Below, one piece after another: positions 852 to 64,000 of a stretch of 64,000 bases of DNA. A program made the translations under genes and the position numbers. Origin of the DNA: Eledone cirrhosa (Eukaryota); NCBI GenBank assembly GCA_964016885.1, contig OZ024742.1, positions 77,066,001-77,130,000 on the forward strand. Direction: 5' to 3'. The notes under the pieces were generated by a model. That model was not told where the DNA came from and did no database searches. It saw only the letters and a list, made by a program, of their open reading frames with translations. Each line of letters begins with the position of its first letter. Position 1 is the first letter of the stretch.

Positions 852-852
<1 letters not shown>

Positions 853-1088
853 ATAGCTTTCACCGTATTTTTGACTCAAGGAATTTTATCCTGATAATGA
901 GGTTTAGCACCCTCAGTTAAATGGAAAAAGATGAGTATTGACTCCCATGTACGTCAATACTCATATTTTTCCATTTATCTGAGGGTTCTATACCCCATTA
1001 TCAGGCTAAAATTCCTTTAGTAAAAAATACGGTGAAAGCTATTCAATTTTCTAATTTCAAACTGCTCACTGTTTCAAAACATACTTAA
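852..1088. repeat. ~190 bp fold-back palindrome of the tRNA-bearing 270-bp repeat family, between (TA)n tracts
   Basis: Arms 852-941 and 952-1043 are reverse complements. The centre GACTCCCATGTACGTC matches the 3' end of the tRNA-like unit at 63695-63710. Confidence 0.75.
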
Positions 1089-8976: not shown

Positions 8977-11900
8977 TTTTTTTATTGGCTACAACGGTTG
9001 ACATCAAGAAAAAACTTTACAGAAGACACGGGATGGTACAGGACGGTACGATGTGGGTTTTATGCTTGTAAAGATGTTTATTATTCATGTAAGAAAAGAA
9101 AAAGAAAAAGACATAGAAACAGATATATATATAAAAAAAACAATAAAAATGAAAATTGAAACAATTAAGAATTCCCCATTAGGGGGGGGGACCTCCCAGG
9201 GTTACTCGTGGCGAAAACCACACAAAAGACTACGGCCACCCTGATCACCAGGGCAAGGGCCTCTCTCAATGTTTCCCATTTCTCAAACTACAGGCGTATG
9301 TTCAGAGCGGCGCGTTCACTCGGACCATTCTCGCTACATTCACCCACCTTTCAACAAACTTTCTAGAAGGCAGCACAGGCCTCTCCACCCTGATTTTCCT
9401 CTTCAAGTGAAACTTGAAAAAGTTAATCAGGGATTCGCCGAAGAGGAAAGTGTCTGTCTTTAACCCTTTCAACCTTGTCCACCACACAATCTCTTTCGCC
9501 ATGGCCACCAGGCAGATTAAAAACCGCCTGTCCTTGCTCCTCGAGGGAAGACGGTGAGACCATCTGCACAGTCAACTCAGTCGATAAACGGATCAGTCCT
9601 ACACACGACACCAACTGTTCGACGTAGCTCCACAACTAGGCAATGCTCGGACACTGAACGAGTGCGTGCACGGCAGTTTCGTCGCTCTACGCGCATCTCA
9701 GACAGGCTCGGCTGACGGCACTTGCGTGCCTGTAGAGATTATCTCGAACCGGCAACGCTTCCCGGTAGCACTGCCAGTCCATCAAGTTTTGGAAGTTATC
9801 CATAGGCCCTGGGCTGAAATTTCTCCGGAAGAAACCAAACAGCCCATCTTCTTCGACGCCCAGGAGCTCTCGAGAACGTCGTCGCTCTTTTCCTCCACTA
9901 GTCCTCTATATAACGCCGACTTGGATGTTCCACCGATACTGGTGCCTAGCTGTTCACCGTCAAGGAAGAACCAGAGATGCCGCGGCCTCAGCGTATGTTT
10001 GCGCATCATCAGCCATGGCATGCTCAGTCCTCCACGCAACGGGTGTTGACAGCAGATGGATCGTCTGACCATGGGAACGCGTCCCTTCCACAAAAAAGCG
10101 GAAGAAGAATCGCTCCATTTTGGTCAGAGTTGGGCCGGGGCAAGGGACGACTGTAAGGTGGTACCTGATGATGGATGCGATGTACGCATTCGCGATCTCC
10201 GCCCGGCCTTTCAAGGACATCTTCCTCTCGGCCCATTTCAGGGTGAGGGAGGCCACGCTGCTCGTCACCTCGCTCCAGTTTTTCTCCATCTGGTGGTCCG
10301 GTCCGAACCAGACCCTGAGCAATTTAACCGGTCCGTCGGGCGGCATGGACTTGCCTCTCCAGGTGCCGAGCTGCAAGCCCACCGACTTTTCCTCGTTTAT
10401 CTGTCAACGCTTCGTATTCCTTGAGAGCGGTGGAGAGCATCTGGACGTGTCTATTGCTCGACACCACCACGGTGACGTCGTTGGCGTAAGCCCACTCAGA
10501 TTTCCCGCATCCTATTTCCGTGGGACGCCCCTCAGCGACCCCAGTTTGTGCAGTAACGGCTCGGGAGCCAATACGTACAAGAGGGACGAGAGGGGGAAAC
10601 CCTGGCGGACCGAATGCATGATGCTGAACGGCTGCGACAGGTGACGGTTCACCCTCACAACTAAGCAGATGTCGATGTACATCGCAGCGATCCAACCCCT
10701 GAAAACGGGCCCGAAACCGACTGCCTCGAAGACCGCCGCCAGGTACCGATGGTCGACCCTGTCGAATGCTTTGGATTGATCCAAGTTGATCAGGGTCTCA
10801 CGGGTGCCAGGTTCATTAACCACACTCTTTACGATGTATCGCATGAGGTGGAGGTTGTCGTGTATGGATTTGTCCGGAATCGCGCATGTCTGCGCCTCTC
10901 CCACCAGACCCCCGACGACAAGCACCAGCCTCGTTGCTAACACCGTGGCCAAAATCTTGAACTCTGCGTTTAGCAGGTTAAGGGCCTGAAGTTATCGATA
11001 ACATCCCCCTTGTTCGAATCTATTCTCAGCAACCCCACCGCTCCCAGGTTCACAAAACTGGGAATGCTCCCGTTCTGCTGCCAGTAGCAGTAGACGTCTG
11101 CCAAGAGGTCACCGAACAAGTCTGGCATAAATGCATAAATCTCGTAGGGCACACCATACAAACCTGGCGATTTACCCCTCGTGCAGGTAGCCATCGGTTC
11201 CCGTATTTCACCGGCCGATATTGGCTTTTCGCAACACTGTGCTGCGGTTGTCGAGAGCCGAGGCAGTCCGTCGAGGTATGCCCTGAAGTTCATACCCCGA
11301 TCCTGCCCGCCACTGCTCCTGAAGATTTCACCGAAGTGCTGCTGAAAAGCCTCACACATATGCTCGGGTTCGAGCAACACGCGCCCGTTTTGGTCAGAGA
11401 AAGACCGAATTGTGGCCATGTTGCCACCCGGCCCCATTGGACGGCTTTTGTCCCGTCGTGTTTCAGAGCACGCGCTATAACTCTGACAACGCAGCCTTTG
11501 TGTTTTGCGTTGAAGAATTGGTCGAGTGCCAATCTCAACGGAAGCGGGTCGGTTGCGATGCCTGTCCTAAACGCCTCTTCTAGTTTTCTGACTAGCTCTC
11601 CCTCTATTTTCCTCTATCACGTGTCCTTTGTTAAACCTAATCGACTCGACTTTAATTGCCCTTTTCAGGGCGAACCACCACCTGTTGTTGACGACTGCTC
11701 CCGTCAACGCCCGCTTAACTAATACGCTAATCCGGTCTCTGTAGGCTTTGCGCGCCGGGAAAGACGCGGTTAGCTTCCAGTAACCGGGTACTAGTCTATG
11801 AAGTTTGTCTATTTCAATCTCACAGATCACAAATTTGTGGTCTGTGTAGTCGACTATTTTAAATTGTGTACAAGTTATACTAGCCGTATCTAGTTCTCTG

Positions 11901-14034
11901 CAGAACACCCTATTGAGATACGATCTGGATGACCTGTTACGGTTTGTCCATGTCCACATTGGCACATTCGGGTGTCCATTCGATACCTGTCAGACAGTTC
12001 AAAACATCTGAGCAGGTTGGTGAGGCCCTTGCACCCTTCTCCGCTATCCACTAGCCACACACATTCCCAGCGTGCATCCAAGATACCGTTCCAGTCGCCC
12101 ACTAACACTAAAGAGCGGGACGTTCCAAGAGAGGTCTCTAGACGTCTGAAGAAATCTGGCCGTCCTGTCCCAGTTGGAGCATAGACGGCTACTAGCCTGA
12201 ATGCATTGCCTTCGCTGCCGGTCACGTCCAGCACCAGCGACTTACCTTCTGAGGTCGTTGAGCAGGTGACCCTGCTTCCAAGATGACCCCAGGCCACGTG
12301 CATTTATACTGCTTATTCTAAGTACGGCCATTATGGATGAGAAACGAGGCATGTGTGAAAGGGTCATTTACCTTAATCGTGTTGCGAAGGGATAGTAGAA
12401 CCGTCCCTTTGACTGGTCATGGGGGTTTTCAAGGGGATGTCAGTGTATATCCTCTTGGTAACTGACCTACTGAAGTCTCCAACTGCGTTGGGGAATTTTT
12501 GTTTTAAAAGTTCGTACTTTTCTATTTTGATATCAATGATGCTTATGTTTGTCGGAAGATTTCTTGGTGTTGGTGAGATGTAGTAACTTGTTTCTGTGAT
12601 GTCTGTGTGCTGCTTTATATATTGTATGAGTTCTTTATTTGCCATGTTTATGGCTGTGTACTTTTTGGCGGCAAGGGTGATTTTGTTGCTGTTGGGTATG
12701 TGTGTTTTGTTGTGTTTGCGTTGTTGGTGTTTTTGGTGAGGTTGGTGGTGGTGTTGTTATTGTTGGCGGTGGTGCTTGTGGTGGTGTTGTTGCAAGTCTC
12801 CTTGCAGCTTTTACCCCTCTTTGCGTGCCTTCGCTTTTGGAGGGTGAAGCTAAGGGTTTTTCGTTTTTGTTTGTTTGTTGCAGACCGTTTGCCAATACAC
12901 TCCCGCGTCAAACTCCATGTCGGATTCTGTGGCGTCTGGGAGAGGTATGTGCTCCACGGCTGTTGGTGGTGGTTGTAGAGCCCTCTCCGGCGATTTTGTT
13001 CCTGGTGCAGCTACTGAAATTGTAGCTACTGGTGTTGCCGCCACTGATGGTGCTGCTTTAGTTGTCCGTGGCCATGGTACGGGTGCTACGACGTTTCTCT
13101 CCTACTCACTGTGGGAGGGGCTTCTGCGTTTGTTGTCTGCTCTGCTCTTGGTAGCAGCGAATCAGGTATTGTAAGGGGAGGGGCCTGTTCTTCGTTGTCT
13201 TCTGCGGGCAAAAGGCCCTGAGGTGACCTTTTGACCCACAGAGATAACTTTTTGGTCGTCTTCGTTCCACGCTTATAGGGAGTTGGAGTCCTTCCTCGAG
13301 GTCTATGATATCGGGGATAGCGTGGCGATACATTCCTGGTCAGTTTGTATAAGCATTTGCATGCCTATACCTGACCAGTTCTCTCACCCTATTTTCTCTA
13401 CTTGCAGCATAGTCGTCCTGTCCTCGATTCCAGCAAGGACATACTCGGCCAGCCAAGTTATGGGCTATCGTGTGGGACCTGGCTCATTTTGACCTTCACA
13501 ATGTTCTGCCCGCAGTAGGAGGGCACCAACAGTATCTCCTCACCTTTTAGGGTTTCAAAAGAGTGAGACTTCGCTTCTTGGGCGGGGGGGGGGGGCATAC
13601 TCTACTGTGGCGTACTTTCTGCCTCGGGTAATGTAGGATTTGCGTACCCAGACGCACCCCAAGGCCTTTTCGATTTGAGATTCCGTGGCTCTTTCCAACC
13701 GATGTGACATTTTGCTTACGGTGCGCTAAGTTACCGTCCATAGATGCTGGTTCTTGAAAAAATCGGGTGGACGTTTCAAGGAAACTCTATTGGCGTTTCT
13801 TGTCACCATGGCCTTTGCGACTGCCATCTCCTCCTCTGTGACTAATACAGTTTCGATATTTAGGGCGACACACTCAAAAGAAGTGGTCCCTTTTTAAGCA
13901 GCACCAATATTGCTGCCGTTACTGGTCCTGCTGGTAGTCCTGTGATCGCTGTTACAGGTATCGATGTCATTGTTGATGTTTTCGTTGGTACTGTTGTTGC
14001 TGTTGTTATTGTTTTCGTTGATACTGCTGCTGTT
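8976..14034 (-). mobile_element. Decayed L1/Tx1-type LINE (ORF1 + APE-RT ORF2, polyA 3' end)
   Basis: ORF1 has a knuckle SYLCGSKGHLRAFCP. ORF2 starts MAVLRISSINARGL near 12331 and has APE motifs (VYAP, VGDWN, TDHK) and RT motifs (KSPG, FRPL, LDQSKAFDRV, VRQGFPLS, YAND). The 3' end is AATAAAAAAAA at 8976-8986. Many frameshifts. Confidence 0.9.
9300..12331 (-). pseudogene. LINE ORF2 (AP endonuclease + reverse transcriptase), frameshifted, with an internal deletion in the APE domain
   Basis: ORF-track pieces 11890-12303, 11567-11965, 10970-11437, 10512-10952, 9960-10382 and 9782-10093 join into a collinear APE-RT-Cterm order. Confidence 0.85.
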
Positions 14035-14789: not shown

Positions 14790-17700
14790 TAGGAATAAGT
14801 AGAAATTAGTAATAAGTATTAGTTAGTATTCAGTTTTAGTTTTAAGTTTTTACCGGTTGCGCATTTCTTATGCTTTTCAAAAATAATTTTGAGATAGAGT
14901 GCTCGTGATTTTTGCTCTAATCAGATCAGTTTTGGAAATTCTTCCTGTTTTATGCGAAAAAAGTGGCTTAGGAGGTATTAACATTTGGTTGGTTGTTGAA
15001 TGTCACGTGAATAAGCACTATAAATTTTGCGCCAATTCCTGTTGCAAACATTCTTGAAGTCAAAACAATTTTGTTTGATCGGTAGAAGTCACGTGAATGT
15101 TTAAATTGATTTAGCGCAAACTGCTTTCGCGCCAAATGTTGGTTTTTCGAAGAGTGTCCTTTTCCGCTTGATTGAGTTACAGTCATGTTGAGAGGTCAAC
15201 AGTTAAGGTGTCTATTAAGACAAATATATATGTGTGTATGTGTGTGTGTGCGTGTAACAAAGTGGTTCACTGTTGTGATAATGGAAATGAATCGGTCAGT
15301 AGGAATCTATGTGTGGGTGTTTTATTTTAACATGTTGAAACATATTTTTCAGGTCCTGTCTCATACGGAGAACTGTGTGTGTATGTATGTCTGTATGTTA
15401 GTGTGAGCATGTGCATGCGTGTGCGTGTGTGTGTGTTTGTGTGGATGGACCAGTATTTTTGTCGTTCTGGTAAAAATGGCGTACATTATTCGATATTTTC
15501 AGTTATTTGCAAAAACGATTCTCTCAAAAGAACACCAATAATAAAAGTGGTGAAATGATGTATAGTATTGTCATAACAACAAGGCGTGTGTGAGTGTCCA
15601 GATTGTATGGGATACTTGTGTACAAATATGTATTCACCCATCAATGTGCAATACATGTTTGCGTATGTGTATGTGTGCGTGTCGGTACGTGTATGCAAAA
15701 TGTATGCAAATTTGTGTATATTTGTGTTGCACCATAGAACATGTGTGTTTACGTATGTCATTGCGTTTAAATGTGGGTAGAAATGTATGTAGGTTGTATG
15801 CTGATGTAGGTATGTATATCAACGTGTGTATGTTGTAGGTTCGTATTAAGAAGAATTGTTTAGAGGAGATCCGTATTTGTTAATAAAGTGTGATTCCTTG
15901 CTTATGCGCTGGGTGTGGGTGGCATTATCTTTAAATTTGTAGAGGAGTAAGTTTCTAAAGTTGGGATAATTTTGAGCGGCATAGGTATCAATTTGTTCAA
16001 TCAGTGGTATTTTTCTGTATTCCCGTATTTTGATTTGGGATCTATAGACAGTCATCCGTTGGCGGAGGCTGTTTTTAGTGTGGCCTATGTATTGTTCTCG
16101 ACAACTTGAGCAAGTTAATACATATATTAGAGTTTCTGATGCGCATGTGAAATTGTGTTATACTATAAAACGGTGTCATTGTTTGAAATATAATTCCGAA
16201 CCCTCTATTAGGTTGATACATATACAGTTGGGTCTATCGCATTTTTTTACTGGGGGTTTCGTTGTTGTGGTTGGCAGTACTTTCGCTTGTGTTAGTATGT
16301 TTCTCATTTACTTAGATTGTCTTTTGCTCTTTATGATATCGTGTGTTCGAAGGATTTGGTTCATTCTATGGTCCTTTTTTTAATACAGGGATATACTGCA
16401 GGATGGTGTCAAAGGCCTCATTGGTGAGGGGGTGTGTGTGGAGATGTATGGAAGAGCTTTTAGTTTCGGTTGATTAACCTTAGGGTGTCTAAGGTCCTGG
16501 GTACTGTGTTTTAGGGCACGTTAGATTCCATTGACAATTAGTGATGCAGTGTACTCCCTGCTTATGAGTGCGTCCTTTAGTTCTTGTAGACGTACCTAAG
16601 TAACAAGTATTTTTATTAGAAAATATGATACAGATTTTATTTGCTAAGTTGTAGGGAATATTAATTTTAACGTGTCCTGGGTGGCATGAATTGAAAGGAA
16701 GATATTGCTTGGAGTCTGTGGGCTTATAGTATATGTCTGTTTCTATTTTTTTGTTATGAATCTTAATGAGGATGTCGAGAAAAGGGAGTTGTTGATGGCT
16801 GTATTCCATTGTAAAATTAATATTCGTGTTGAGCCCATTTATAAGCATGTGAAATTCTTTAAGTTTCTCGATATTTTCGAGCGAAACGATGAAGCAGTCA
16901 TCTAGATATCTATTCCAGTTCTTTTCAATGTGTAAACGGAGAATGTTTCGAAATTTGTTTAGTACTCTAGTGTAGAGGGGGATTTCCAGGTATCCCAAGA
17001 CTAGGTTGGCATAAGTGGGGGCCGTTTTCGTTCCCATAGCGGTCCCAGATTTCTGCCTGTATAATTTGTTATTGAAAACGAAGTAATTATTCTCCAAGAC
17101 AAATTTGAGTCCTTCTATCACGAATTCTTTTTTGATGCGTTGTGGGAGTTCATTGGTGTAATTATCCAGCCAGAATTGGATAGCTTCTATTCCTAGGTTG
17201 TGGAAGATGTTGGAGTATAGGTTGACTACATCGAACGTCACTAGCAGGGTTTGTTCAGTAAGGGTATAGTAGGGAGGTGGTTGAGCATATCTAGGTCGTC
17301 CCTTATGTAGCTTTTAATGTGTTTGAGAAAAGGTTTGAGAAGGGTAACAATGAAGTTGCTAAGGAGGTGGGTTTCGCAAGCGGGGCCTGCTATTATAGGT
17401 CATAATTTGAGATCATTAGGCGAGGGGACATTGATGACTATGTATGTGGCTTCCTTGCATGCCTTACTTATTAATTCGCTTGTATGTACTTTAGGGATAC
17501 TATAGAAAAGGCTAGATTTACTTGTGAAGTCTGTGATGAAGCTGAATTCCTTGTTAGTGAGTCCTACTTTGTATGGGTTGATCAGTGTTTTTAGATTTCT
17601 CATAATTTCCTGTTGATTGTAGTGTTCAGCCTTTTCGTAGTATGTTTCATTTTCCAAAGTGAAGAGCGTTAAGTTGATATAGAATTCTGTCTAAATTAGG

Positions 17701-24159: not shown

Positions 24160-26527
24160 ATACATTAAATTAAATAAACGTATAAATAAATAAATACGTA
24201 TATAACGCGCGCGCACACATACCTACCTGTAAATACACATATGTTCGGAGACTACGTCAGCCAAAACACAAAGTACACATATACACACACCCTACATACG
24301 TACGAACCCGCATACTCACACAGACGGAAAACTCGCATATACACATAACCAAATGCATATGTACCAGAATATATAATATATACGCCATAAAATATACAAT
24401 CAAATATAAGTACGAGAAAGTATACGTACCTTCACAAAACATACAGGTAATATATACTTACCTATACAAATAAGTAATGGTATAAACATAACATATACTT
24501 AACTACCACATCAAGACGGAAAATATCCTCGTATAGATCGTACTATCCGTTAGGGTATAATCTGGTGCTGTAATACAGGAAAGTTTTGTGCAATTTATGT
24601 TTACAAGCCGAAATTGTCTCAGATTTTTTGTTTAAGATGTGGTCTTTGGCGTAGAATATTTACAGGGCCTCAGCGTCGCAGAGGTCACACGGTCTTTTAT
24701 TTCCGTTATACGATCTAGCCATAGCTAGGATCTCCCAGTGTAACTTATATTGGGTGTGGTTGTCTTTTAAACTCCAGATGTAAGCTGAAAGTGACGTCAT
24801 ATTCCTTCTTAAAGGATTAAGAATGGGTATTCATATAAAGACGCTGCTTGAATCTATTGGCGTTTAACACTATGTAGGCCCTACGGGACGTGGGTGTTTC
24901 AACCTTACATTTGTAGACAATGTTACTAGAGAGGCATTTCCCGGATAGGGGGAAGTCAACCCGATTCCTACAATTACAGTTAGTACTAGCTACAGGGTTG
25001 CACGCGTTCCTACGGCTAGGCACTTTAGCTAAATTTGAAGCTGTGATGTTATGTGCAAGGTTAGGTGTCGTAGAGTAAGAAATGTTAATGGTATTTCTAT
25101 TAAACATTTTACTATATTTATGTGTTGGGGAAAATGCTTGTTAATAAGGAACAGAAGGCTCTTAGCTAATTGTGTGGTCACCTCCATATTATATGGTGGG
25201 TTATACCATATAATGCGGCGGGATCTATTTTTTCTAAGTCTATTCTCGTACTCTGTATATGCTACCTTATCGACAAATCCACTCCGAGCAAGAGCTCCAT
25301 TGTAATATGTGGAATGGTCGTTGAAAATATGCTCGTTAGTAGATAGACGGGAAAGGCTCAAAGAAACGTTTCTTACCAGGTTCTTGGTTATGCTGGCAGG
25401 ATGGTTAGAATGCTTAATTATGTAATTAAACGTATCATTCGGCTTTCTATACGGGTAGTGTAAGCCATTCGGCAAATTGAGGGTAACGTCGAGGTAATTA
25501 ACGACCGACAGGTTGGCCTCAACCTGTGTGGAGAGGTTGAAGCCTTTACAGAAGGCTGCGAGTTCTTTTCTGAACCTGTCGCAAGCACGTGGGCCGCACT
25601 TTGTCATGGTCGAAAGACCATCATCAAGGTACAAACCACCGCCCACGTTTGGGAATTCATCCTTGATAGAGAAAATAAGGAAAAGGCCGATAAGATCAGT
25701 AACCTCCGCGGAATCGCTGGCGCCTATACTCACGTCAAATGGGGTAATGCATTTCGTTATGTGTATACGCGAGTTTTGCTTCTGTATGAGTATGCGGGTT
25801 CGTACGTATGTAGGGTGTGTGTATATGTGTACTTTGTGTTTTTGTTGACGTACGTCTCCGAACATATGTGTATTTACATGTAGGTATGTGTGCGCGCGCA
25901 TTATATTCGTATTTATTTATTTAAGCGTTTATTTAATTATATGTATACACGCACAGACACACGCATATATATATATATATAATTTTATATACCTTTTTAT
26001 GTGTATTTGGTGTATACATTCGTACTTGTGCGTGTACAGGCGTTGCGTGGGTTCTGCATGTGCTTGCGGGGTTTTTTTGTGTATGTGTTTGTATTTGTAT
26101 AACTATGGCGAGTGTTTTCGCGTATGCTTGTGTATGTTCGTATATTGATGCGTGTATGTATTTATTTAATTTCAATTACCTCTGTATTTTATTTACTTTA
26201 TTCTTTACTCTGAAACCGAGAATCGCTCGGTTTCCTAGTTATAATTTTAGTCTACGACTTCAGTTATACCATTTACGTGGTTTTGTATTTGCGTGCAATT
26301 GTTCTGTACGATCCACATAATGACGTATTATCTTCGTTTTTTCCGTTCATTGCCAGAGCACATCTCCATGAACCAATGTATCGTCTTCCTGTCTTTCTCC
26401 GGTTGCAACATTTTTTGAAATATTTACTTCTGCGTTCACAGATTGACTTTTTTAGTTTCAGAAGAATCCGTTAAGGGTGAAAGCAGCGGTTATTTGCTTA
26501 AACTTTAATCTGTTATTTTAATAAATA
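23306..26527 (-). mobile_element. Penelope-like element (lineage B), 5'-truncated, with long inverted 3'-UTR copy
   Basis: RT/EN 24600-25746 (FDVSIGASDSAEVTDL, GLYLDDGL, YLDVTLNL, SNHP, WYNPPY, CNCRNR…PLSGKCL..NIVYKC). 25746-26527 is the reverse complement of 23393-24358. Confidence 0.9.
26454..26504 (+). ncRNA. Hammerhead-like motif with CAGAAGA core (U4A variant)
   Basis: AGTTT-CAGAAGA-ATCCGTTAAGGGT-GAAA-GCA…TGC-TT-AAACT. The same core occurs at 23416-23466 (-) and 32970-33020 (+). Confidence 0.55.
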
Positions 26528-30626: not shown

Positions 30627-32605
<1,979 letters not shown>

Positions 32606-35597: not shown

Positions 35598-35871
35598 ACA
35601 AATTACAGATTATCGTTGGGAAATTGTCCCATCCGAATACTAACATTATTAAGACAATACCATAAATTGAGCTTGAGCTTATATCACACGACTCAAGTAA
35701 GTATTCTTAATTTTGTTGGTACCATAATGTTAAAAAACGGAAATGTAGTGAACGATATGCATTACAAATCATTCAACGCAGTGCACCAGTATCGCAGCTG
35801 CCAGGTATCTGAAGCTAGTAAAAGAATAAAAATATACATACGCATATATATATGTATATATATATATATCT

Positions 35872-36269
35872 TCGAAAGTATTTTAATTAAACATACAATG
35901 TATTGCAAAATACACTATATATACATTCATATATATATCGCTATTTCAGAGCACCAATTCTAATTTTCAATTTCTGCTTGACCGGCAACCGCTCTGTATA
36001 ATCAGTTCCTGATTATTACTAGAATTCTATAAGAATCAAACATTCATGATATTCAGCAAACAGGCGGAGTACTTAGCTTTGATAAGAACCAACAAGTGCG
36101 AAACAGAGCTCTGTCAGCTTTATCTCCCCTGTTTGCTGAAAATTAAAGTAAGTGAGACTGTCATTACTCTAAAACAATAGCGTAAGTTTTAAATAAGCAT
36201 ACAGGGTATTGCAAAATACATTACATATACATTCATATATATATATCGCTATCTATTTCAGAGCACCAA

Positions 36270-36276
<7 letters not shown>
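35872..36276 (+). mobile_element. ~310-bp retrozyme-like unit with terminal direct repeat, in (TA)n
   Basis: 35881-35964 is repeated at 36187-36276. It contains an HHR at 36075-36119. Same family as 44885-45517. Confidence 0.8.
36075..36119 (+). ncRNA. Type I hammerhead ribozyme motif, U3-A8 core variant
   Basis: AGCT-TTGATAA-GAACCAACAAGTGC-GAAA-CAGAGCTCTG-TC-AGCT, enclosed by a longer stem 36052-36140 (TTCAGCAAACAGG/CCTGTTTGCTGAA). Confidence 0.75.
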
Positions 36277-36333: not shown

Positions 36334-39300
36334 GAGGTTATATTTAATTTGTTGGGATACAACAAGCTTAAAAATATTTTTATAACTGATATAACGCACT
36401 CAACAAATTATTGGAGTAAATATACAATATATTAACAAATGGAAACTATATTTATAAAACCATATTTATTTCATTATACATATTTCAAGAGCCATCAAGG
36501 CAGATTATGGTTCGCTTTCATCAAATAAAACACAATGCAGATTAGTTTTATAAATAAATTTTGACATACCCTGAAAAAAGACAACCTTAACGGTTGGAGC
36601 TTCCTGGATAGTGGAGATATTATATTTATTGAGGGTGATATAATGTTACGATTGAGTGTGCAAATGAGTGCCCGAAAGGTTTAAATAAAGTATATTTAAA
36701 TTAAACCGTTGGAAGAGAAAAAAAAAAGAAGAACTGTTTATATATATGTTTTCCAGTGGAAAGAGTATAGCGTGATTATGTTTAAGTGAGAGTAAATATT
36801 AGTTATAAGGACAAATATAGCGTAAGTGTGTTTACGTGAGAGGAAAGAAGAAGAAGCGAAAAAACGAATACAACGTGGATGAATAATAAAGCAGGATTCA
36901 TTATAATGATAGGCTGAAAAAATTGTTATCAAAGGTTTAATTGATAAATTTGATTAAATGTTTAATGAATAATTTAATAATTTAATAATTAGTTTAAATG
37001 TGTGTTAGATTATTAAAAAAATAAAAAAAATAAAAAAAATAAAAAAATATTAAAAAATATTAAAACCTATTATATATTATTACAAAATATATATTAAAAA
37101 ATATACATATTATTATAAAATATATATATTATTATTAATTATTAATTATTAAAAGATTCTAAGTTAAAAATTTAAGATATCCAAATAATTCTAAATTTAT
37201 GGAAATTCAGAGAGTTTACAGAAGAATAACCCCTTATGTGTATTATAATAGCAGTAAAGCGTAAAGGAAGTTATTAGTGATTTATTAATAACTCTAAGGA
37301 TTAAATGCTATAAGGTTAAGAAGTTAAAAAGTTAAATTTTCTATCTTAAGAATGTAATTAGAACATGAATCTTATGTTATTTTATACGAAGTCATAAATT
37401 TATAAATTCATAAATTTACTTGTTATAAAGTTACAAAAGTTAAAACATAAATTTACTTGTTATAAAGTCATAACATATAAAAATTATAACATTTAAAAAA
37501 TGTTCACAAAAATATATTTAAAGCATAAAAGAACATTTTCATAAGAATATATTTATAAAATATATTTAAAGCATAAATTCTAGGTTATACCACGCATACA
37601 TAAAAGAAACACTATGTTTATCATATATATATAAATATTTGGATATATATATATATTTTAAACATTTGGATATATATATATTAAACATTTGAAAAATATA
37701 AGAATATAAAAATATAAAAATATAAAATATAAAATATAAAATATAATTTTTCTATACTCTTCAAAGGAATTTTCAAAAAATGTTTCTTAACCCCTTCAGG
37801 AAGTTTATCAAGAAAAAATTTTTCAAGAAATAATCTTCTTTAAGGGAGTTCTAAGCAGTCATATAAAGGAATTTAATGATTTATCGATAGGTGTAATAAT
37901 AATATATGTGAAGTAGAGATAATGGACAATAAGTTATAGAGGACATTATATTATATTTTATATATATATTTAAAAGTTGAATTCAACCGATGTTTGCAAG
38001 AACTGAATAAGTATTCCTTAAATTAACAGAATTCTTACTTTTTAATATAAAGAATATTTCTTCTATACAAAGAGCGCAATTTTCGGATAAAGCATTGAAT
38101 GAAGGAGCTTTGGAAATAATATTCCAAAGTAAAGAATAGTTAATGTTCTTTGATTTTAGGTCCCATAGTAAATTAGATAGAGAATTTGAAGTTTTTTTTA
38201 CTAATATTCGTAAAAAAGCATTTGTGGTTATTAAAACGGGACTTTACATTTGTTTTTACATTACAATTGTATACTATGTTTTTAACTAAACAGTTATTAT
38301 TTAGAGGACAGTTAGATTTATTTCTACAGTTACATTTATCTAAATTTAAGTTACTAGGAGCCGTACTATTATATTGGATATTGCTAGGGGTATTAATGGT
38401 ATTCTGGTTAGGTTTTAAGTTTCTATTATTAATTCTATTAATACTCTGAGCTAGATTCATAGTGGTGGAATATGATAATTTGATGTATGTCTATCAAATA
38501 TTTAGTAATATATATGTGTTCTAGGAAAACATTTATCTAGAGCTTTAAAGAATAATTTAGCAATAGGAGTTTTAATACTTAATGATAAAGGGGTAGCGAA
38601 CCATAATATATTTCTAGTTCTATTTCGCCTTTTGGTTTTCGATTTATTGTAAGGTTTTCTATTATAGTCTTTATAGTTATGGTTAGTTGGCACATCGTTA
38701 TTATTAATGTATTTAATTGTATTACTATACCCTACTCTACTTAACGCGTCGTTCTAATATTGTGTTTTATCTTCAAAAATATTCTTATTAGCTAAAATTC
38801 TAAAAATACGTTGCTGCACAGAATTTACTATAGTGTTTTAAACATTTCATCAAATGTATCAATTAAACCTTTAATAAAAATTGTTTCAAATTATCATTAT
38901 AATGAATCCTGCTGTATTATTCATTCACATTGTATTCGTTTCTTCGCTTCTTCTTCTTTCCTCTCACATAAACACACTTACGTTATATTTGTCCTTATAA
39001 CTAATATTTACTCTCACTTAAATATAATAACGCTATACTCTTTCCACTGGCGAAAAATATATATAAACAGTTCTTCTTTTTCTCTTTCTTTCTTTTTTTT
39101 TCTCTCTTCCAACGGTTTAATTTAAATATACTTTATTTAAACCTTTCGGACACTAATTTGCATACTCAATCGTAACCTTATATCACCCTCAATAAATATA
39201 ATATATCCACTATCCAGGAAGCTCCAACCGTTAAGGTTGTCTTTTGTTCAGGGTATGTCAATATTTATTTATAAAATTAATCTGTATTCTATTTTATCTG

Positions 39301-44884: not shown

Positions 44885-45517
44885 GTGACAGTGTCACTAT
44901 TTTAAACAATAGTGTATGGTCTTCAAAATGCTGTTAATTAAGCATACAGTGTATTGCAAAAAAACACACTATATATACATTCATATATATATCGCTATTT
45001 CAGAGCACCAATTCTAATTTTCAATTTCTACCGGACCGGCGTACGTTCGGTATAATCAGTTCCTGATTATTACTGGGATTCTATAAGAATCCAACACACA
45101 TAATTTTCAGCAAACATGAGGGGTATTGCACTTTGATAATTACCAAAACAGAGCTCTCTCAGTTTATCTCCCCTGTTTGCTGAAAATTTAAATAAGTGAC
45201 ATTGTCACTATTTAAAAACAATAGCGTATGGTTTTCAAATTGCTTTTAATTAAGGATACAGTGTATTACAAAATACCTATATATACATTCATATATATAT
45301 ATATCACTATTTCAGAGCACCACTTCTAATTTTCAATTTCTGCTGGACCGGCGACCGCTCTCTATAAGTTCCTGATTATTACTCGAATTCTATAAATGAC
45401 ATTGTCACTATTTTAAAACAATAGCGTATTGTCTTCAATATGCTTTTAATTAAGCATACAGTGTATTGCAAAATACACTATGTATATATATATCTATTTA
45501 AGAGCACCAATTCTAAT
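44885..45517 (+). mobile_element. Head-to-tail array (~2.3 units, one with a deletion) of the 310-bp retrozyme-like family
   Basis: Units start near 44885, 45196 and 45396. It has the same 3' end GAGCACCAATTCTAAT(TA)n as 36276. The HHR at 45130-45155 is degenerate. Confidence 0.8.
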
Positions 45518-45586
45518 TTATATATATATATATATATAATAAAATAACAGGAGGATGGACTTGTGTAATTCCTAATATATATATAA

Positions 45587-55289: not shown

Positions 55290-57583
<2,294 letters not shown>

Positions 57584-58069: not shown

Positions 58070-60150
58070 AAAACACAATATCGACTCCTCCACCAAGGAA
58101 ATCCCAGTTCCACCGAGAAATCTTTACCTTCGGATGCTCCCGCAAAAAACCGACCTGTTTGCGAAACGACTGAGATGGAGAACATTTTTCTACGATAGAT
58201 AACGCGACAACCAGGACTTCGACACCAAGGAGAGATTCGGATTCAATACCAACAAATCTGCCCCACCGAACCCTATGCTCTCAGCTTTCTAGAACGACTA
58301 CTTCAACCTGGTCAAGGGTATAACATTAAAACACAGACACAACCGAATCCTACAACAACTCCGTAGCAAAATAACTGAGTATTAAAGCACCAACGACATA
58401 CTGGTGCATTCGGACAAAACTGGAAACCTTCTTCCTCAACCCTGACAGATACCACACACTCATCAGGAGCAGCCTGAACTCCACCTACAAAAAGGCTAAC
58501 CATTCAATAATCGAGGACAACAAATTACCTCAAAAATCGGGGTCGCCGCCGCACTGAACCCCCCAAGCCACAGACCCCCTACTTCACCCTGAAGGACCAC
58601 AAATCCGACTTCTACCGCAAACCAGCCATCAGGTTTATAAACCCGACGAAGTCGGACATAGGGAGTATCAGTAAAATGATCCTAGACCGCGTTATACCAA
58701 TAGTTAAGCAAAACGCGAGACTTAGCTTTTGGGTCAGCACGCAGGAGGTCATCTTATGCTTCAGGAATATTGAGGACAAAGAGGACACCAAATTCATCCA
58801 GTTCAAGATAGAGAGTTACTACGCCTCTATTACCTTACCGCTCCTAACGGCCTCTTTGGACTTTGCCAAAACACTCACACTCATCACCAACCAGGAAAGA
58901 AACATCATTCTCCACGCAAAGAAGACAGTCCTCCTTTTCGACAACCCCAAGTGGATAAAGAGAGCGACCGACACCCCCTTCGACGTCAGTATGGGCGTGA
59001 CCGACTCGGCCGAGGTGACCGATCTACTATATAAACTCACCGAAATGTTTCCTGCATTCGGCGGTGGATTGTACTGAGACAATGGGCCCCTTACTCTCAA
59101 AGGGCACAACCCCAGTAATACACATCGGGTCCGTAAAAAACTAATCAACTTCTTCCGGAACTGGGGATTTAAAATCCCCCTACAAACGTCCCTAACCCGA
59201 GTCAATTTCCTGGATGTTACCCTCAACCTGGAAAATGATCTGCACTTCCCATACAGGAAACCAAACGACAACCTGCACTACATCCACCGCGGTTCTAACC
59301 ATCCTAGAAACATCAGCAATAACCTGGTTAAAAACAACTCCCTCTGATATTTCGTTTGGCCGCTAATGAGGAGATATTCGATGAACATGCGCCTCATTAC
59401 AATCAGGCCCGCAAGCGAAGCTGCTTCCGGGAGGAAATCTCCTTTTATCCAGCTTCCCTTAGCGGAACCAACAGGTGAGACCGCCGCTCACGCCACGTAA
59501 CGTGGTTCAACCCTCCCCACAATGCCGAGGTGGCAACACCTATAGGGAAAATCTTCTTTAGGCTCCTCGAAAAACAGTTCGCACCAAAACATAATCAACA
59601 AAACCACTATCAAACTCTCCTACAGCACCACTCCCAACTTCGCACAAAACATTGCCTCCTCAAACAACAAGAATCTCAACCCCTATTGAAGAAACAATAG
59701 TGGAGAGCCGACCAGGAGGTGAAACTGCCCTGAGAGATCTACGTGCCCACTCAACAACAGATGCCGAGAACGTAACGTGATCTACCAATGCAACATGACG
59801 ATGGAAACCTCCAACGAAGCCTTTATAGGAAGATAATCGCTTGTGACTTTAAGTCCCGGCACTACCAACACCGACATACGTTCCAAAACCCGGCCCGGCG
59901 ACATGCCACTACACTTTAGGGCCACATCTGGGAGCTCCAAGATAATAACATAACATACAATCTTACTTGGAGCTTACTGTCCAGGGCTGACTCCTACACG
60001 GGAGGACGCCGTCCGTGTAACTTATGATCGGAGGAAACATTACAAATGCTGTTTACGAAGGACCAACTCCTAAACAAAAAATACGAACTTGTAACCGCAT
60101 GCAAACACCGATTGCGTAGGACTTACCTCGCCCTCAAACCCCCTCGTGAC
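58070..60150 (+). pseudogene. Near full-length PLE lineage B RT + GIY-YIG-type ORF with stops and frameshifts
   Basis: STKEIPVP…KRLRW…FTLKDHK…RFINPTKSDIG…FDVSMGVTDSAEVTDL…FLDVTLNL…SNHP…WFNPP…CPLNNRC..NVIY…LLNKKYELVTACKH. Confidence 0.88.
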
Positions 60151-61906: not shown

Positions 61907-62020
61907 TATGGGAACGGTTCGTTTTCTAGGCGCATCGTTTTCTAGGCGCATCCTACGCCATTTTGAAAATGGCGTAGGATAGAAGAAAGGAAAGGCACAG
62001 AAACGAAGAAAGAAATCCCC

Positions 62021-62065
62021 AGTCACTGAAGAGGTCACAGAGTGTGTGACGAAAGAACTATGACT
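62021..62065 (+). ncRNA. Type I hammerhead motif with a 1-nt insertion after A9
   Basis: AGTCA-CTGAAGA-G-GTCACA GAGTG TGTGAC-GAAA-GAAC-TA-TGACT; perfect 5-bp stem I and 6-bp stem II. Confidence 0.75.
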
Positions 62066-62278
62066 ATATATATATAAACAACTATCTGGTTGTGGAACCA
62101 ACCAACCAACCAGAAATTTATAAATTTGTAAATTTATAAATATTTAATAAATTAAATTGAAGTGAAAGCAACTGGTGCGTGTGTTTCTTATTGGCAGCAT
62201 GACCCTCCCAAAGTGTAACAATATCGGTTTCAACACACGATTTCAGATAAAGAATCTTGCTAAACAAATTCAGAAACG

Positions 62279-62312
<34 letters not shown>

Positions 62313-62469: not shown

Positions 62470-62738
62470 TAAGTGGGTTTGAAATTATTTGAAATGTAAG
62501 ATATCGCCGAATTTTGACTAAATAAATTAAAGAAATGATTTAGCCTGCTAGTGGGGTTAACAACCCTCGGATAAATGGAAAAAGATGTACGTCAATACTC
62601 ATCTTTTTCCATTTCTCCGAGAGTTCTTAACCGCACTATCAGGCTAAATAATTTCTTTAATTTATTTAGTCAAAATACGGCGATAGCTTACCTTTCAAAT
62701 AATTTCAAATCCACTCACTGTTTCGAAAATATTCTCAC
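62470..62738. repeat. Fold-back copy of the tRNA-bearing 270-bp family
   Basis: 62470-62587 mirrors 62600-62720 and ends in (TA)n. Confidence 0.75.
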
Positions 62739-62771
<33 letters not shown>

Positions 62772-62776
<5 letters not shown>

Positions 62777-63062
62777 ATTTACAAGGATCAAAGCTATGTT
62801 CAAAGCATTTATTCACTTACGATTGTTTCATCCAAACCTAGGCCTGGTGTCTTCGGAGCATTTTTCAATGGTTGTACATATAATTGACCTCCTATCCAAC
62901 GCAAGAGACATACAGATACATAAATATATATTGATGTACAGTGGAGTGGCATATATTATACTATACTATATTTGTACAGCAATTCAAATTTAAAACCAAG
63001 CCTAGGTTTGGATTAAACAATTGTAAGTGAATAAATGCTTTGAACATAGCTTTGATCCTTGT

Positions 63063-63070
<8 letters not shown>
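62772..63070. repeat. Element with ~77-bp inverted arms and HHR-like motif (62814-62860, -)
   Basis: 62772-62849 mirrors 62995-63070. Minus strand TGCT-CCGAAGA-…CCAGGCCTAGGTTTGG…-GAAA-CAATCG-TA-AGTG. Confidence 0.65.
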
Positions 63071-63134
<64 letters not shown>

Positions 63135-63142
63135 TATATACG

Positions 63143-63247
<105 letters not shown>

Positions 63248-63260
63248 GTATATATATATG

Positions 63261-63292
<32 letters not shown>

Positions 63293-63294
<2 letters not shown>

Positions 63295-63812
63295 GTGAGA
63301 ATATTTTCGAAACAGCGAGTGGATTTGAAATTATTTGAAATGTAAGCTATCGCCGTATTTTGACTAAATGAATTAAAGAAATTATTTAGCCTGATAGTAG
63401 GGTTAAGAACTCTCGGAGAAATGGAAAAAGATGAGTATTGACGTACATCTTTTTCCATTTATCCGAGGGTTCTTAACCCCACTATCATGCTAAATCATTT
63501 CTTTAATTTATTTAGTCAAAATACGGCGATAGCTTACATTTCAAATAATTTCAAACCCACTCGCTGTTTCGAAAATATTCTTATTTGACATCATAATCGC
63601 TACGTTTATAGCTTCCAATTTGAATGGAAAAAGACGGGTGATGTGTTGGTGTAAATGGTAACACAGTGGTCCGGTTAACCAAAGATGTGGGTTCGACTCC
63701 CACGTACGTCGATACTCATCTTTTTCCATTTCTCCGAGGGTTCTTAACCCCACTTTCAGGCTAAATAATTTCTTTAATTTATTTAGTCAAAATACTGCGA
63801 TAGCTTACATTT
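63293..63812 (+). mobile_element. tRNA-bearing ~270-bp repeat: 5' inversion (63293-63445) + 1.35 tandem units, in (TA)n
   Basis: CATCTTTTTCCATT recurs at 63446 and 63717. The left part is the reverse complement of the unit. Confidence 0.8.
63640..63711 (+). tRNA. tRNA-like cloverleaf (pseudo-tRNA/SINE head; atypical anticodon loop)
   Basis: Acceptor GATGTGT/GTACGTC, D-arm GTGT/ACAC, anticodon arm TGGT/ACCA with loop CCGGTTA, T-arm GTGGG-TTCGACT-CCCAC. A- and B-boxes are present. Confidence 0.65.
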
Positions 63813-63813
63813 G

Positions 63814-63844
<31 letters not shown>

Positions 63845-64000
63845 TACACGGGTGTGTATGAGTGTGTATAGAAGATTATATTAATAAAAGGAATTCCAAC
63901 TTTGTCTGAATTACTCGTTTGATTTACTGTGACAGTTGAAAATTACAAACTTGACTGTCAACACAGAATATGAACCTGAAGTTTGCGAAAGCATGAAAAT

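Follow-up and report, generated by a model that had tools for sequence, protein, structure and literature searches.

Near the end of the window, a stretch of 64,000 nucleotides of Eledone cirrhosa DNA, lies a short repeat whose unit carries a tRNA-like fold (Table 1). The original prediction had described a unit of ~270 bp with (TA)n flanks, a partial tandem and an inverted 5' arm, and all of these are borne out in the copy at 63293-63812, where the period is 271 bp. The fold, detected by ARAGORN and Rfam (RF00005, 44.1 bits, E 4e-6), is the sole tRNA in the window by both. Its acceptor has 7 bp, including three G.U pairs, its A and B boxes are intact, and the stem that was said to clamp it is real, with 17 bp, one C.A mismatch, one G.U pair and a 3-nt bulge.

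Three copies had been thought to hold the tRNA, which is true of the third. The other two, at 852-1088 and 62472-62739, are fold-backs; they start within the T-arm, so that just the last 10-17 nt of the tRNA are left. Given that 62472-62740 is the reverse complement of 63293-63561 (96% alike, with an identical junction), the window contains two independent insertions, not three. The interval 62470-63561 forms one large inverted duplication around a further TA-flanked fold-back element (62777-63066), and either local copying of a read-through transcript or folding back at the DNA level may account for it.

Other parts of the window hold fragments of several families of Penelope elements (PLEs; 15846-17690, 24817-25916, 30739-31251, 38173-38490, 55416-56045 and 58511-59077) and a broken LINE-like RT/endonuclease element (9960-12303). 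At 62000-62280 is the end of another PLE-type family with a canonical-core hammerhead; this family is also found fused to the tRNA repeat at locus L159. A separate hammerhead-bearing family, used here as a control, is present in the window at 44885-45519 as well as at the position listed in Table 1, and at loci L315-L364.

Table 1. Features of the tRNA repeat and of the elements compared with it. Locations are window positions unless a contig is named; unit positions (m) are counted from m1, the first tRNA base, in the natural 271-bp unit of locus L007, and -1 is the preceding base.
Feature	Location	Strand	Remarks
Subfamily-B-type fold-back copy	852..1088	.	Forward arm from T-loop (about 940), long end 1088, (TA)n both sides
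Hammerhead-bearing control family	35869..36276	+	319-bp unit, variant core; outside the tRNA family
Fold-back copy	62472..62739	.	m193 back to m78, then m63 to m217; almost no tRNA left
(TA)n target, long end of third copy	63067..63294	.	Window sequence
Inverted 5' arm of third copy	63294..63448	-	Long 3' end (m217) back to m63, in the T-arm
Forward arm of third copy, 1.35 units	63446..63812	+	m78, across the unit boundary, to m173; short 3' end class
Purine-rich leader arm of 17-bp stem	63623..63639	+	Holds the putative RNA 5' end, A(-6), at 63634, deduced from the cliff in 5' ends
Degenerate tRNA	63640..63711	+	A box 63647-63658, B box 63690-63700
Stem trailer arm	63714..63730	+	Includes the conserved T5 run, 63721-63725
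(TA)n target, short end of third copy	63814..63846	.	Window sequence
Hydra-clade PLE tandem, intact	L307 (G000:C1:91473000-91482999)		3.5 kb period

The anticodon of the fold varies among copies. Among 71 distinct element-type ARAGORN calls, 48 are Ser(GGA), 11 Ser(CGA) and 2 Thr(GGT), and the Thr(GGT) assignment is specific to the window copy. A functional tRNA gene is ruled against by this variation, by an anticodon loop in which U33 is not fixed, and by a best identity of 47/71 to the part of the host tRNA set compared. No source tRNA emerged from an Rfam search scoring 63 of about 552,000 candidates or from a D-arm pattern search, the best identities being 35-47/71. In energy, the predicted MFE fold is 2-2.7 kcal/mol lower than the cloverleaf.

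Clusters of about 11 and 44 tRNA-Trp D-arm motif matches are found at G000:C4:277.41-277.44 Mb and 353.39-353.49 Mb, the first of which consists of tRNA-Trp(CCA) genes and pseudogenes (ARAGORN). A different dispersed repeat of about 1.7 kb (L263 and L265-L273; e.g., G000:C2:16467255-16470327) starts sharply, is flanked by TA and has a short hairpin at its terminus, and a well-formed tRNA (53-72 bits) of variable anticodon is located about 310 bp inside it. It resembles a DNA transposon or an element of Helitron type that has taken on a tRNA as passenger.

Genome-wide, the family is made up of non-coding units of 260-290 bp in which the longest stop-free frame is 53-72 aa. A 22-mer in the tRNA has 1,316 exact matches in the 3.0-Gb genome and a 17-mer near the 3' end has at least 8,160, with no match to the reversed-pattern control in either case. 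Three subfamilies, A, B and C, have units of 271, about 260 and 290 bp, respectively. At one locus (L311; G000:C1:131458900-131465830), about 26 subfamily-B units, 81-91% alike to the reference, form a head-to-tail array with an inverted arm at its start and a long-class end; this is a PLE passenger growing into a satellite. Copies of subfamily C are 88-100% alike to one unit, and the strand asymmetry of its 962 pattern matches (292 vs 670) hints at a second large array.

Fixed differences between subfamilies A and B, taken by commonest letter, affect 1/71 columns of the tRNA, 3/34 of the stem and 26/151 of the spacer (p 3e-4), in a comparison whose B class includes some C copies and whose sample was in part chosen by the tRNA motif. 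The three stem changes, two from A-U to G.U and one that repairs a mismatch, all keep or add pairing. As originally stated, the unit lacks a hammerhead: a motif scan that found two of three controls and missed the third detected no core on the sense strand of the three subfamily units, and gave a single loose match on the antisense strand of B.

The way in which the repeat inserts was examined in 136 distinct insertions, picked by exact pattern and all on contig C1, after the 30 best BLAST matches and two edge-cut arrays had been set aside. Here an arm is one continuous stretch of repeat in a single orientation, and its ends are BLAST ends by default. Outer ends lie within 25 nt of (TA)n in 179/211 cases, and they fall into two 3' classes about 40 nt apart, with 107 long (m205-230), 87 short (m160-190) and 17 other ends. 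The 3' end quoted in the original prediction is thus a genuine end class, but just one of two. More than half of the insertions (75/136) are head-to-head, and in 36/136 an arm exceeds one unit. Among the 62 head-to-head insertions that could be classified, 58 pair a short with a long end, four are short+short and none is long+long (p 1e-13), which suggests that reverse transcription would have one start site per strand. The inverted arms differ in length and in the unit position of their ends.

Partial tandems, inverted 5' copies and a tail of 30-40 bp at one end are described as PLE features by Craig et al. (PMC8557442), who also report (TA)n as the insertion target of Hydra-clade PLEs. According to Frangieh et al. 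(PMC11167929), the tail lies between two internal start sites of reverse transcription, a two-end tail is unique to PLEs, both target strands are extended, and hammerhead cleavage is dispensable in vitro. We consider PLE-type mobilisation of the tRNA repeat, which the original prediction had proposed, very likely; end pairing, (TA)n targets, inversions and fusions with PLE ends strongly support it. One insertion, at L020 (1255-1273 and 1753-1775), lies outside (TA)n and has a 9-bp direct repeat at both sides together with inverted flanking sequence. In an unrelated repeat at L458-L460 the fold-backs are near-perfect, share a centre that recurs and end in (TA)n; this repeat is probably another PLE-type passenger with a fixed 5' stop of its own.

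It is very improbable that the repeat is an ordinary LINE-dependent SINE, a MITE or a satellite that came to lie in (TA)n by chance. The family is short and high-copy, has a tRNA-derived head and includes one long array, as such a reading would have it, but the two fixed 3' end classes with their short+long pairing (58/62), the variable 5' arms, the permuted partial tandems and the fusions with PLE ends do not suit it. Contrary to what an ordinary SINE would show, most arms begin elsewhere than at the first base of the tRNA, and the mapped loci revealed no tail of LINE type. The inverted arms, for their part, are variable 5' inversions rather than the fixed TIRs of a MITE, which are absent from the same loci.

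PLEs are abundant in the genome. Hydra-type ORFs of 784-786 aa are intact, with RWR, DKT and CxCx5C motifs and tandem copies that are 99.8% alike; Pfam recognises no family in the Hydra-type ORF, and assigns RVT_1 and GIY-YIG to the other PLE ORF. Searches by blastn and nhmmer, covering 383 kb of PLE loci and 848 kb of flanks, detected no autonomous PLE with sequence in common with the repeat. The best match to a PLE locus has an E of 0.55 within these 383 kb, which come from three PLE protein searches and cover few of the families present, and the search for a partner gave one weak match, at L146-148 (E 0.07).

The 5' neighbour is neither (TA)n nor another arm in 25/241 arms examined, and 3/241 are fused to other PLE-type ends. 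At L008 and L014 the repeat is joined head-to-head, at a junction without TA, to Hydra-type pLTR ends that finish in (TA)n, and at L159 it is joined head-to-head to a third, hammerhead-bearing family. We suspect that each of these fusions was a single event in which the two strands were primed on different RNAs. The fusions point to Hydra-type machinery without naming one partner.

The 5' ends of the arms are not randomly placed. In a set anchored on a spacer motif (three tail-only pieces were dropped, and six ends at m42, which are fold-back alignment artefacts, were moved to m62), stops are rare in the spacer (m92-165: 21/104 arms, 0.003 per base) and just 3' of the tRNA (m70-91: 7/83, 0.004 per base). 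They are concentrated in the T-arm (m57-69: 49/76, 0.050 per base), which in the window copy places the main stop of reverse transcription within 63640..63711, and are again rare over m9-56 (8/27, 0.006 per base). At the tRNA start 3/19 arms stop, and the other 16/19 run on through the unit boundary.

The T-arm peak, at m62-63 (29 arms), corresponds to the 3' strand of the T-stem. It is seen in fold-backs, in asymmetric inversions and adjoining TA, so a local 4-base palindrome is not its whole cause, and it recurs in subfamily C. Because the 17-bp stem, though longer, gives no peak, what halts the cDNA here is more likely to be a modification, a protein bound to the RNA or the elbow of the tertiary fold. 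The modification m1A58 is a candidate, and no excess of misincorporation was observed at the A58 equivalent (2/96 and 2/84, against backgrounds of 1.7% and 2.4%). At L012 (1886-1935), an arm of the tRNA repeat is joined at the T-arm to the head of what appears to be a different tRNA-derived SINE, which suggests a template switch between tRNA-like RNAs.

A second group of ends lies at the tRNA start, where 34/92 arms of a set anchored on a tRNA motif end between m262 and m8 (31/58 among first-pass arms). To place the upstream limit, we considered junctions near the tRNA start with ends allowed to about -20, at 73 candidate loci from among the matches listed and at 9 further loci; such junction-targeted searches set a limit and not a frequency, and they exclude ends 3' of about +3. 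Maximal-match ends of the 55 arms at head-to-head or TA junctions are at -8 (1 arm), -6 (12), -5 (6), -4 (4), -3 (4), -2 (6), -1 (12) and +2 (10). There is therefore a cliff at -6, beyond which lie 1/55 junction arms and 0/19 further arms; among the matches listed, one additional arm outside the 55-arm count reaches -8. The -6 class is inflated by AT microhomology, and once microhomology is removed the ends range from -7 to +4 with a mode at -4, and 37/55 keep a leader of 1-7 nt. In subfamily C, judged by eye, three junctions end at -4 to -6, and none of seven long-end arms that pass the tRNA 5' half stops at the tRNA start. A different spacer was present at 7/50 of the listed junction loci; these belong to an unrelated repeat (3 examined).

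The cliff falls on a purine that lies 13 nt upstream of the A box, a position in keeping with initiation by Pol III. RNase P cuts at +1, and the cliff is harder to reconcile with such a cut. Given PLE-type mobilisation, we regard a Pol III start as likely on the evidence of these sequences. Few arms in the spacer-anchored and C samples stop at the start site, so many templates must reach further upstream, and multimeric or read-through RNAs would contribute too.

The hammerhead control family shares the two-end, inverted, (TA)n architecture of the tRNA repeat. It has 1,259 exact 21-mer matches in the genome and two 3' end classes about 30 nt apart, and its core, in which U replaces the first C and A occupies the sixth position, is a local variant that Rfam misses. 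Its 5' ends are spread over the unit, with 3/59 of those listed within 10 nt of the cleavage site (three array pieces split at that site by the reference are set aside), so the 5'-end peaks are specific to the tRNA family. The original prediction had a tRNA in place of the ribozyme. This holds for position, but as a statement about function it is probably wrong, given that the ends of the hammerhead family do not pile up where its ribozyme would cut.

Taken together, we consider it fairly probable that the repeat is a SINE-like passenger of Penelope elements, with a Pol III RNA that is headed by the tRNA and primed at two sites by PLE machinery. In this scenario, Pol III would start at about A(-6) on partial-tandem loci, and a fraction of the transcripts would pass the T5 run. 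The PLE protein would nick both strands of the (TA)n target and cDNA would start at two internal sites of the RNA, m~160-187 and m~210-227, one per strand, as the positions of the ends indicate. The cDNA usually halts in the T-arm, probably at the barrier of a folded or modified tRNA; otherwise it would reach the RNA 5' end or continue into the next unit. Head-to-head joining of the two cDNAs, in many cases with short microhomology at the junction, gives the inverted arms with one short and one long end. Run-on along multimeric transcripts, or template switching at the repeated tRNA, may rebuild partial tandems that could be transcribed again, whereas copies truncated at the T-arm lack the promoter and would be dead. 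The tRNA was originally described as internal, unlike that of an ordinary SINE. Within the DNA unit this is so, but the tRNA probably stands at the start of the RNA, as it does in a SINE, and would owe its internal place solely to PLE-type permutation.

Several observations count against this scenario, including the missing sequence match to an autonomous PLE in the loci searched, the lack of stops at the tRNA start in the subfamily C sample, the AT microhomology of the -6 class, the absence of a misincorporation excess at the A58 equivalent and the energy of the cloverleaf relative to the MFE fold. The T5 run, which follows the tRNA by 10 nt, belongs to the most strongly conserved segments of the repeat and is kept in all three subfamilies. 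A run of this kind is expected to terminate most Pol III transcripts, here ahead of the start sites of reverse transcription, and its disruption should then be favoured. The run may be leaky, its second copy then setting the bounds of a terminal repeat; alternatively, a Pol II-derived RNA may retain it for the sake of pairing. Stops at the start site are also fewer in the spacer-anchored set (3/19) than in the tRNA-anchored set (34/92). The template of the local inverted duplication at 62472 may have extended into the upstream flank, and in that case it would have been made by Pol II read-through.

The T5 problem disappears if the repeat is instead a Pol II read-through passenger from which RNase P frees monomers by cutting at the tRNA 5' end, much as in MALAT1/mascRNA. 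The leader-trailer stem would then help RNase P to cut, keep RNase Z from acting and afterwards enclose the new 3' end, so that a circle, either nicked or ligated, would remain. This is an unlikely explanation, though one with several points in its favour: the bulged 17-bp stem resembles the arrangement described as promoting RNase P cleavage in MALAT1 (PMC8457004), the stem changes between subfamilies keep pairing, unit junctions are seamless among the aligned copies listed, and -1/+2 is one of the two most frequent end classes. Processing by RNase P or RNase Z, which the original prediction offered beside a Pol III promoter, fits poorly with the ends, however, since they extend upstream of +1, with the cliff at -6 and, as a minimum estimate, 37/55 junction arms keeping part of the leader; since just 7/83 arms stop right 3' of the tRNA; and since the breaking of pairs 1:72 and 2:71, which leaves 5/7 acceptor pairs, has not kept subfamily C from being mobile. 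The mobility of subfamily C also favours a promoter role for the tRNA, and of the two original proposals it is the Pol III promoter that fits the 5' ends.

Slightly less probable still is a passenger whose template was a long or circular RNA lacking any particular 5' end, in which both peaks would be pauses of reverse transcription at RNA structure and the tRNA a module for folding, stability or protein binding. The T-arm peak shows that structure can halt reverse transcription, 16/19 arms cross the unit boundary and an array of roughly 26 units exists, all as this explanation would predict. It has difficulty with the 17-bp stem, which gives no peak when met from the 3' side (7/83, m70-91), and with the leader, which holds nothing that would explain the cliff at -6. 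The tRNA-headed Pol III RNA is the reading that we prefer.

The nearest precedent is the Schistosoma repeat that combines a Pol III promoter with a hammerhead. As described in PMC6765202, these SINE-like repeats likewise have a Pol III promoter in a short tandem retroposon and need a partial tandem to propagate; their hammerhead frees monomers, whereas the tRNA repeat has none. Metazoan non-LTR retrozymes and non-autonomous PLE derivatives are described as having non-coding units of 170-400 nt, as forming monomers to arrays and as probably mobilised by PLEs (PMC7229834; bioRxiv 10.64898/2026.07.22.740005), and the tRNA repeat is similar in these respects. Each non-LTR retrozyme unit, however, carries a type I hammerhead, which the sense strand of the tRNA repeat lacks. 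Retrozymes also seem promoter-less in the account given in PMC7761336, unlike the tRNA repeat with its A and B boxes, its 5'-end cliff and its 5' ends that peak at tRNA landmarks.

Like the tRNA-derived SINEs catalogued in SINEBase (PMC3531059), the repeat is shorter than 700 bp and non-autonomous, with a tRNA-derived head and a putative internal Pol III promoter that likely starts the RNA. The SINE definition given there includes dependence on a LINE RT, and the tRNA repeat differs in its PLE-type, permuted insertion, its two internal starts of reverse transcription and a T5 run directly behind the tRNA. The MALAT1 mascRNA module, as presented in PMC8457004, shares the tRNA-like fold, an acceptor stem extended by pairing of a purine-rich leader with the trailer, and a bulge at the junction; in the tRNA repeat the bulge is on the 3' side, no triple-helix element was seen and the copy ends are off the RNase P site. 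Hydra-clade PLEs (PMC8557442) and Anolis Poseidon (PMC11167929) are reported to have the same (TA)n target, partial tandems, inverted 5' copies, a tail from two starts of reverse transcription and extension of both strands. The tRNA repeat differs from them in lacking an ORF, a hammerhead and, for the PLE families tested, detectable shared sequence. Penelope elements that are short and non-autonomous find mention in 10.1101/596502, with no link to tRNA in the part of that source consulted. We found no report of a tRNA-headed, ribozyme-free PLE passenger in the openly accessible literature searched, and the family may be catalogued elsewhere, for instance in repeat libraries, under a different label.

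We put at slightly better than even the broader proposal that such repeats form a class of SINEs that parasitise PLEs. Members would have a tRNA-headed Pol III RNA with no ribozyme, two internal priming sites, a dimeric PLE protein carrying two RNAs and an LTR-like strand transfer at the terminal tRNA repeat, and their copies would record both the start of transcription and a block to reverse transcription at the tRNA elbow.

From the perspective of PLE biology, the short+long pairing (58/62) and the cross-family fusions provide genomic evidence on the per-strand start of reverse transcription and on the carriage of two RNAs, and the repeat, at less than 300 nt, is a compact substrate for studying pLTR formation, per-strand starts and the use of different RNAs per subunit. 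Repeats of this kind also push up the number of tRNA genes counted in a genome, and would wrongly be classed as SINEs or MITEs. The PLE passengers known so far are mainly promoter-less retrozymes that bear a hammerhead. If our reading is true, a PLE passenger with a tRNA promoter would widen the definitions of both SINEs and PLE passengers, and the hammerhead would be dispensable for trans-mobilisation by PLEs.
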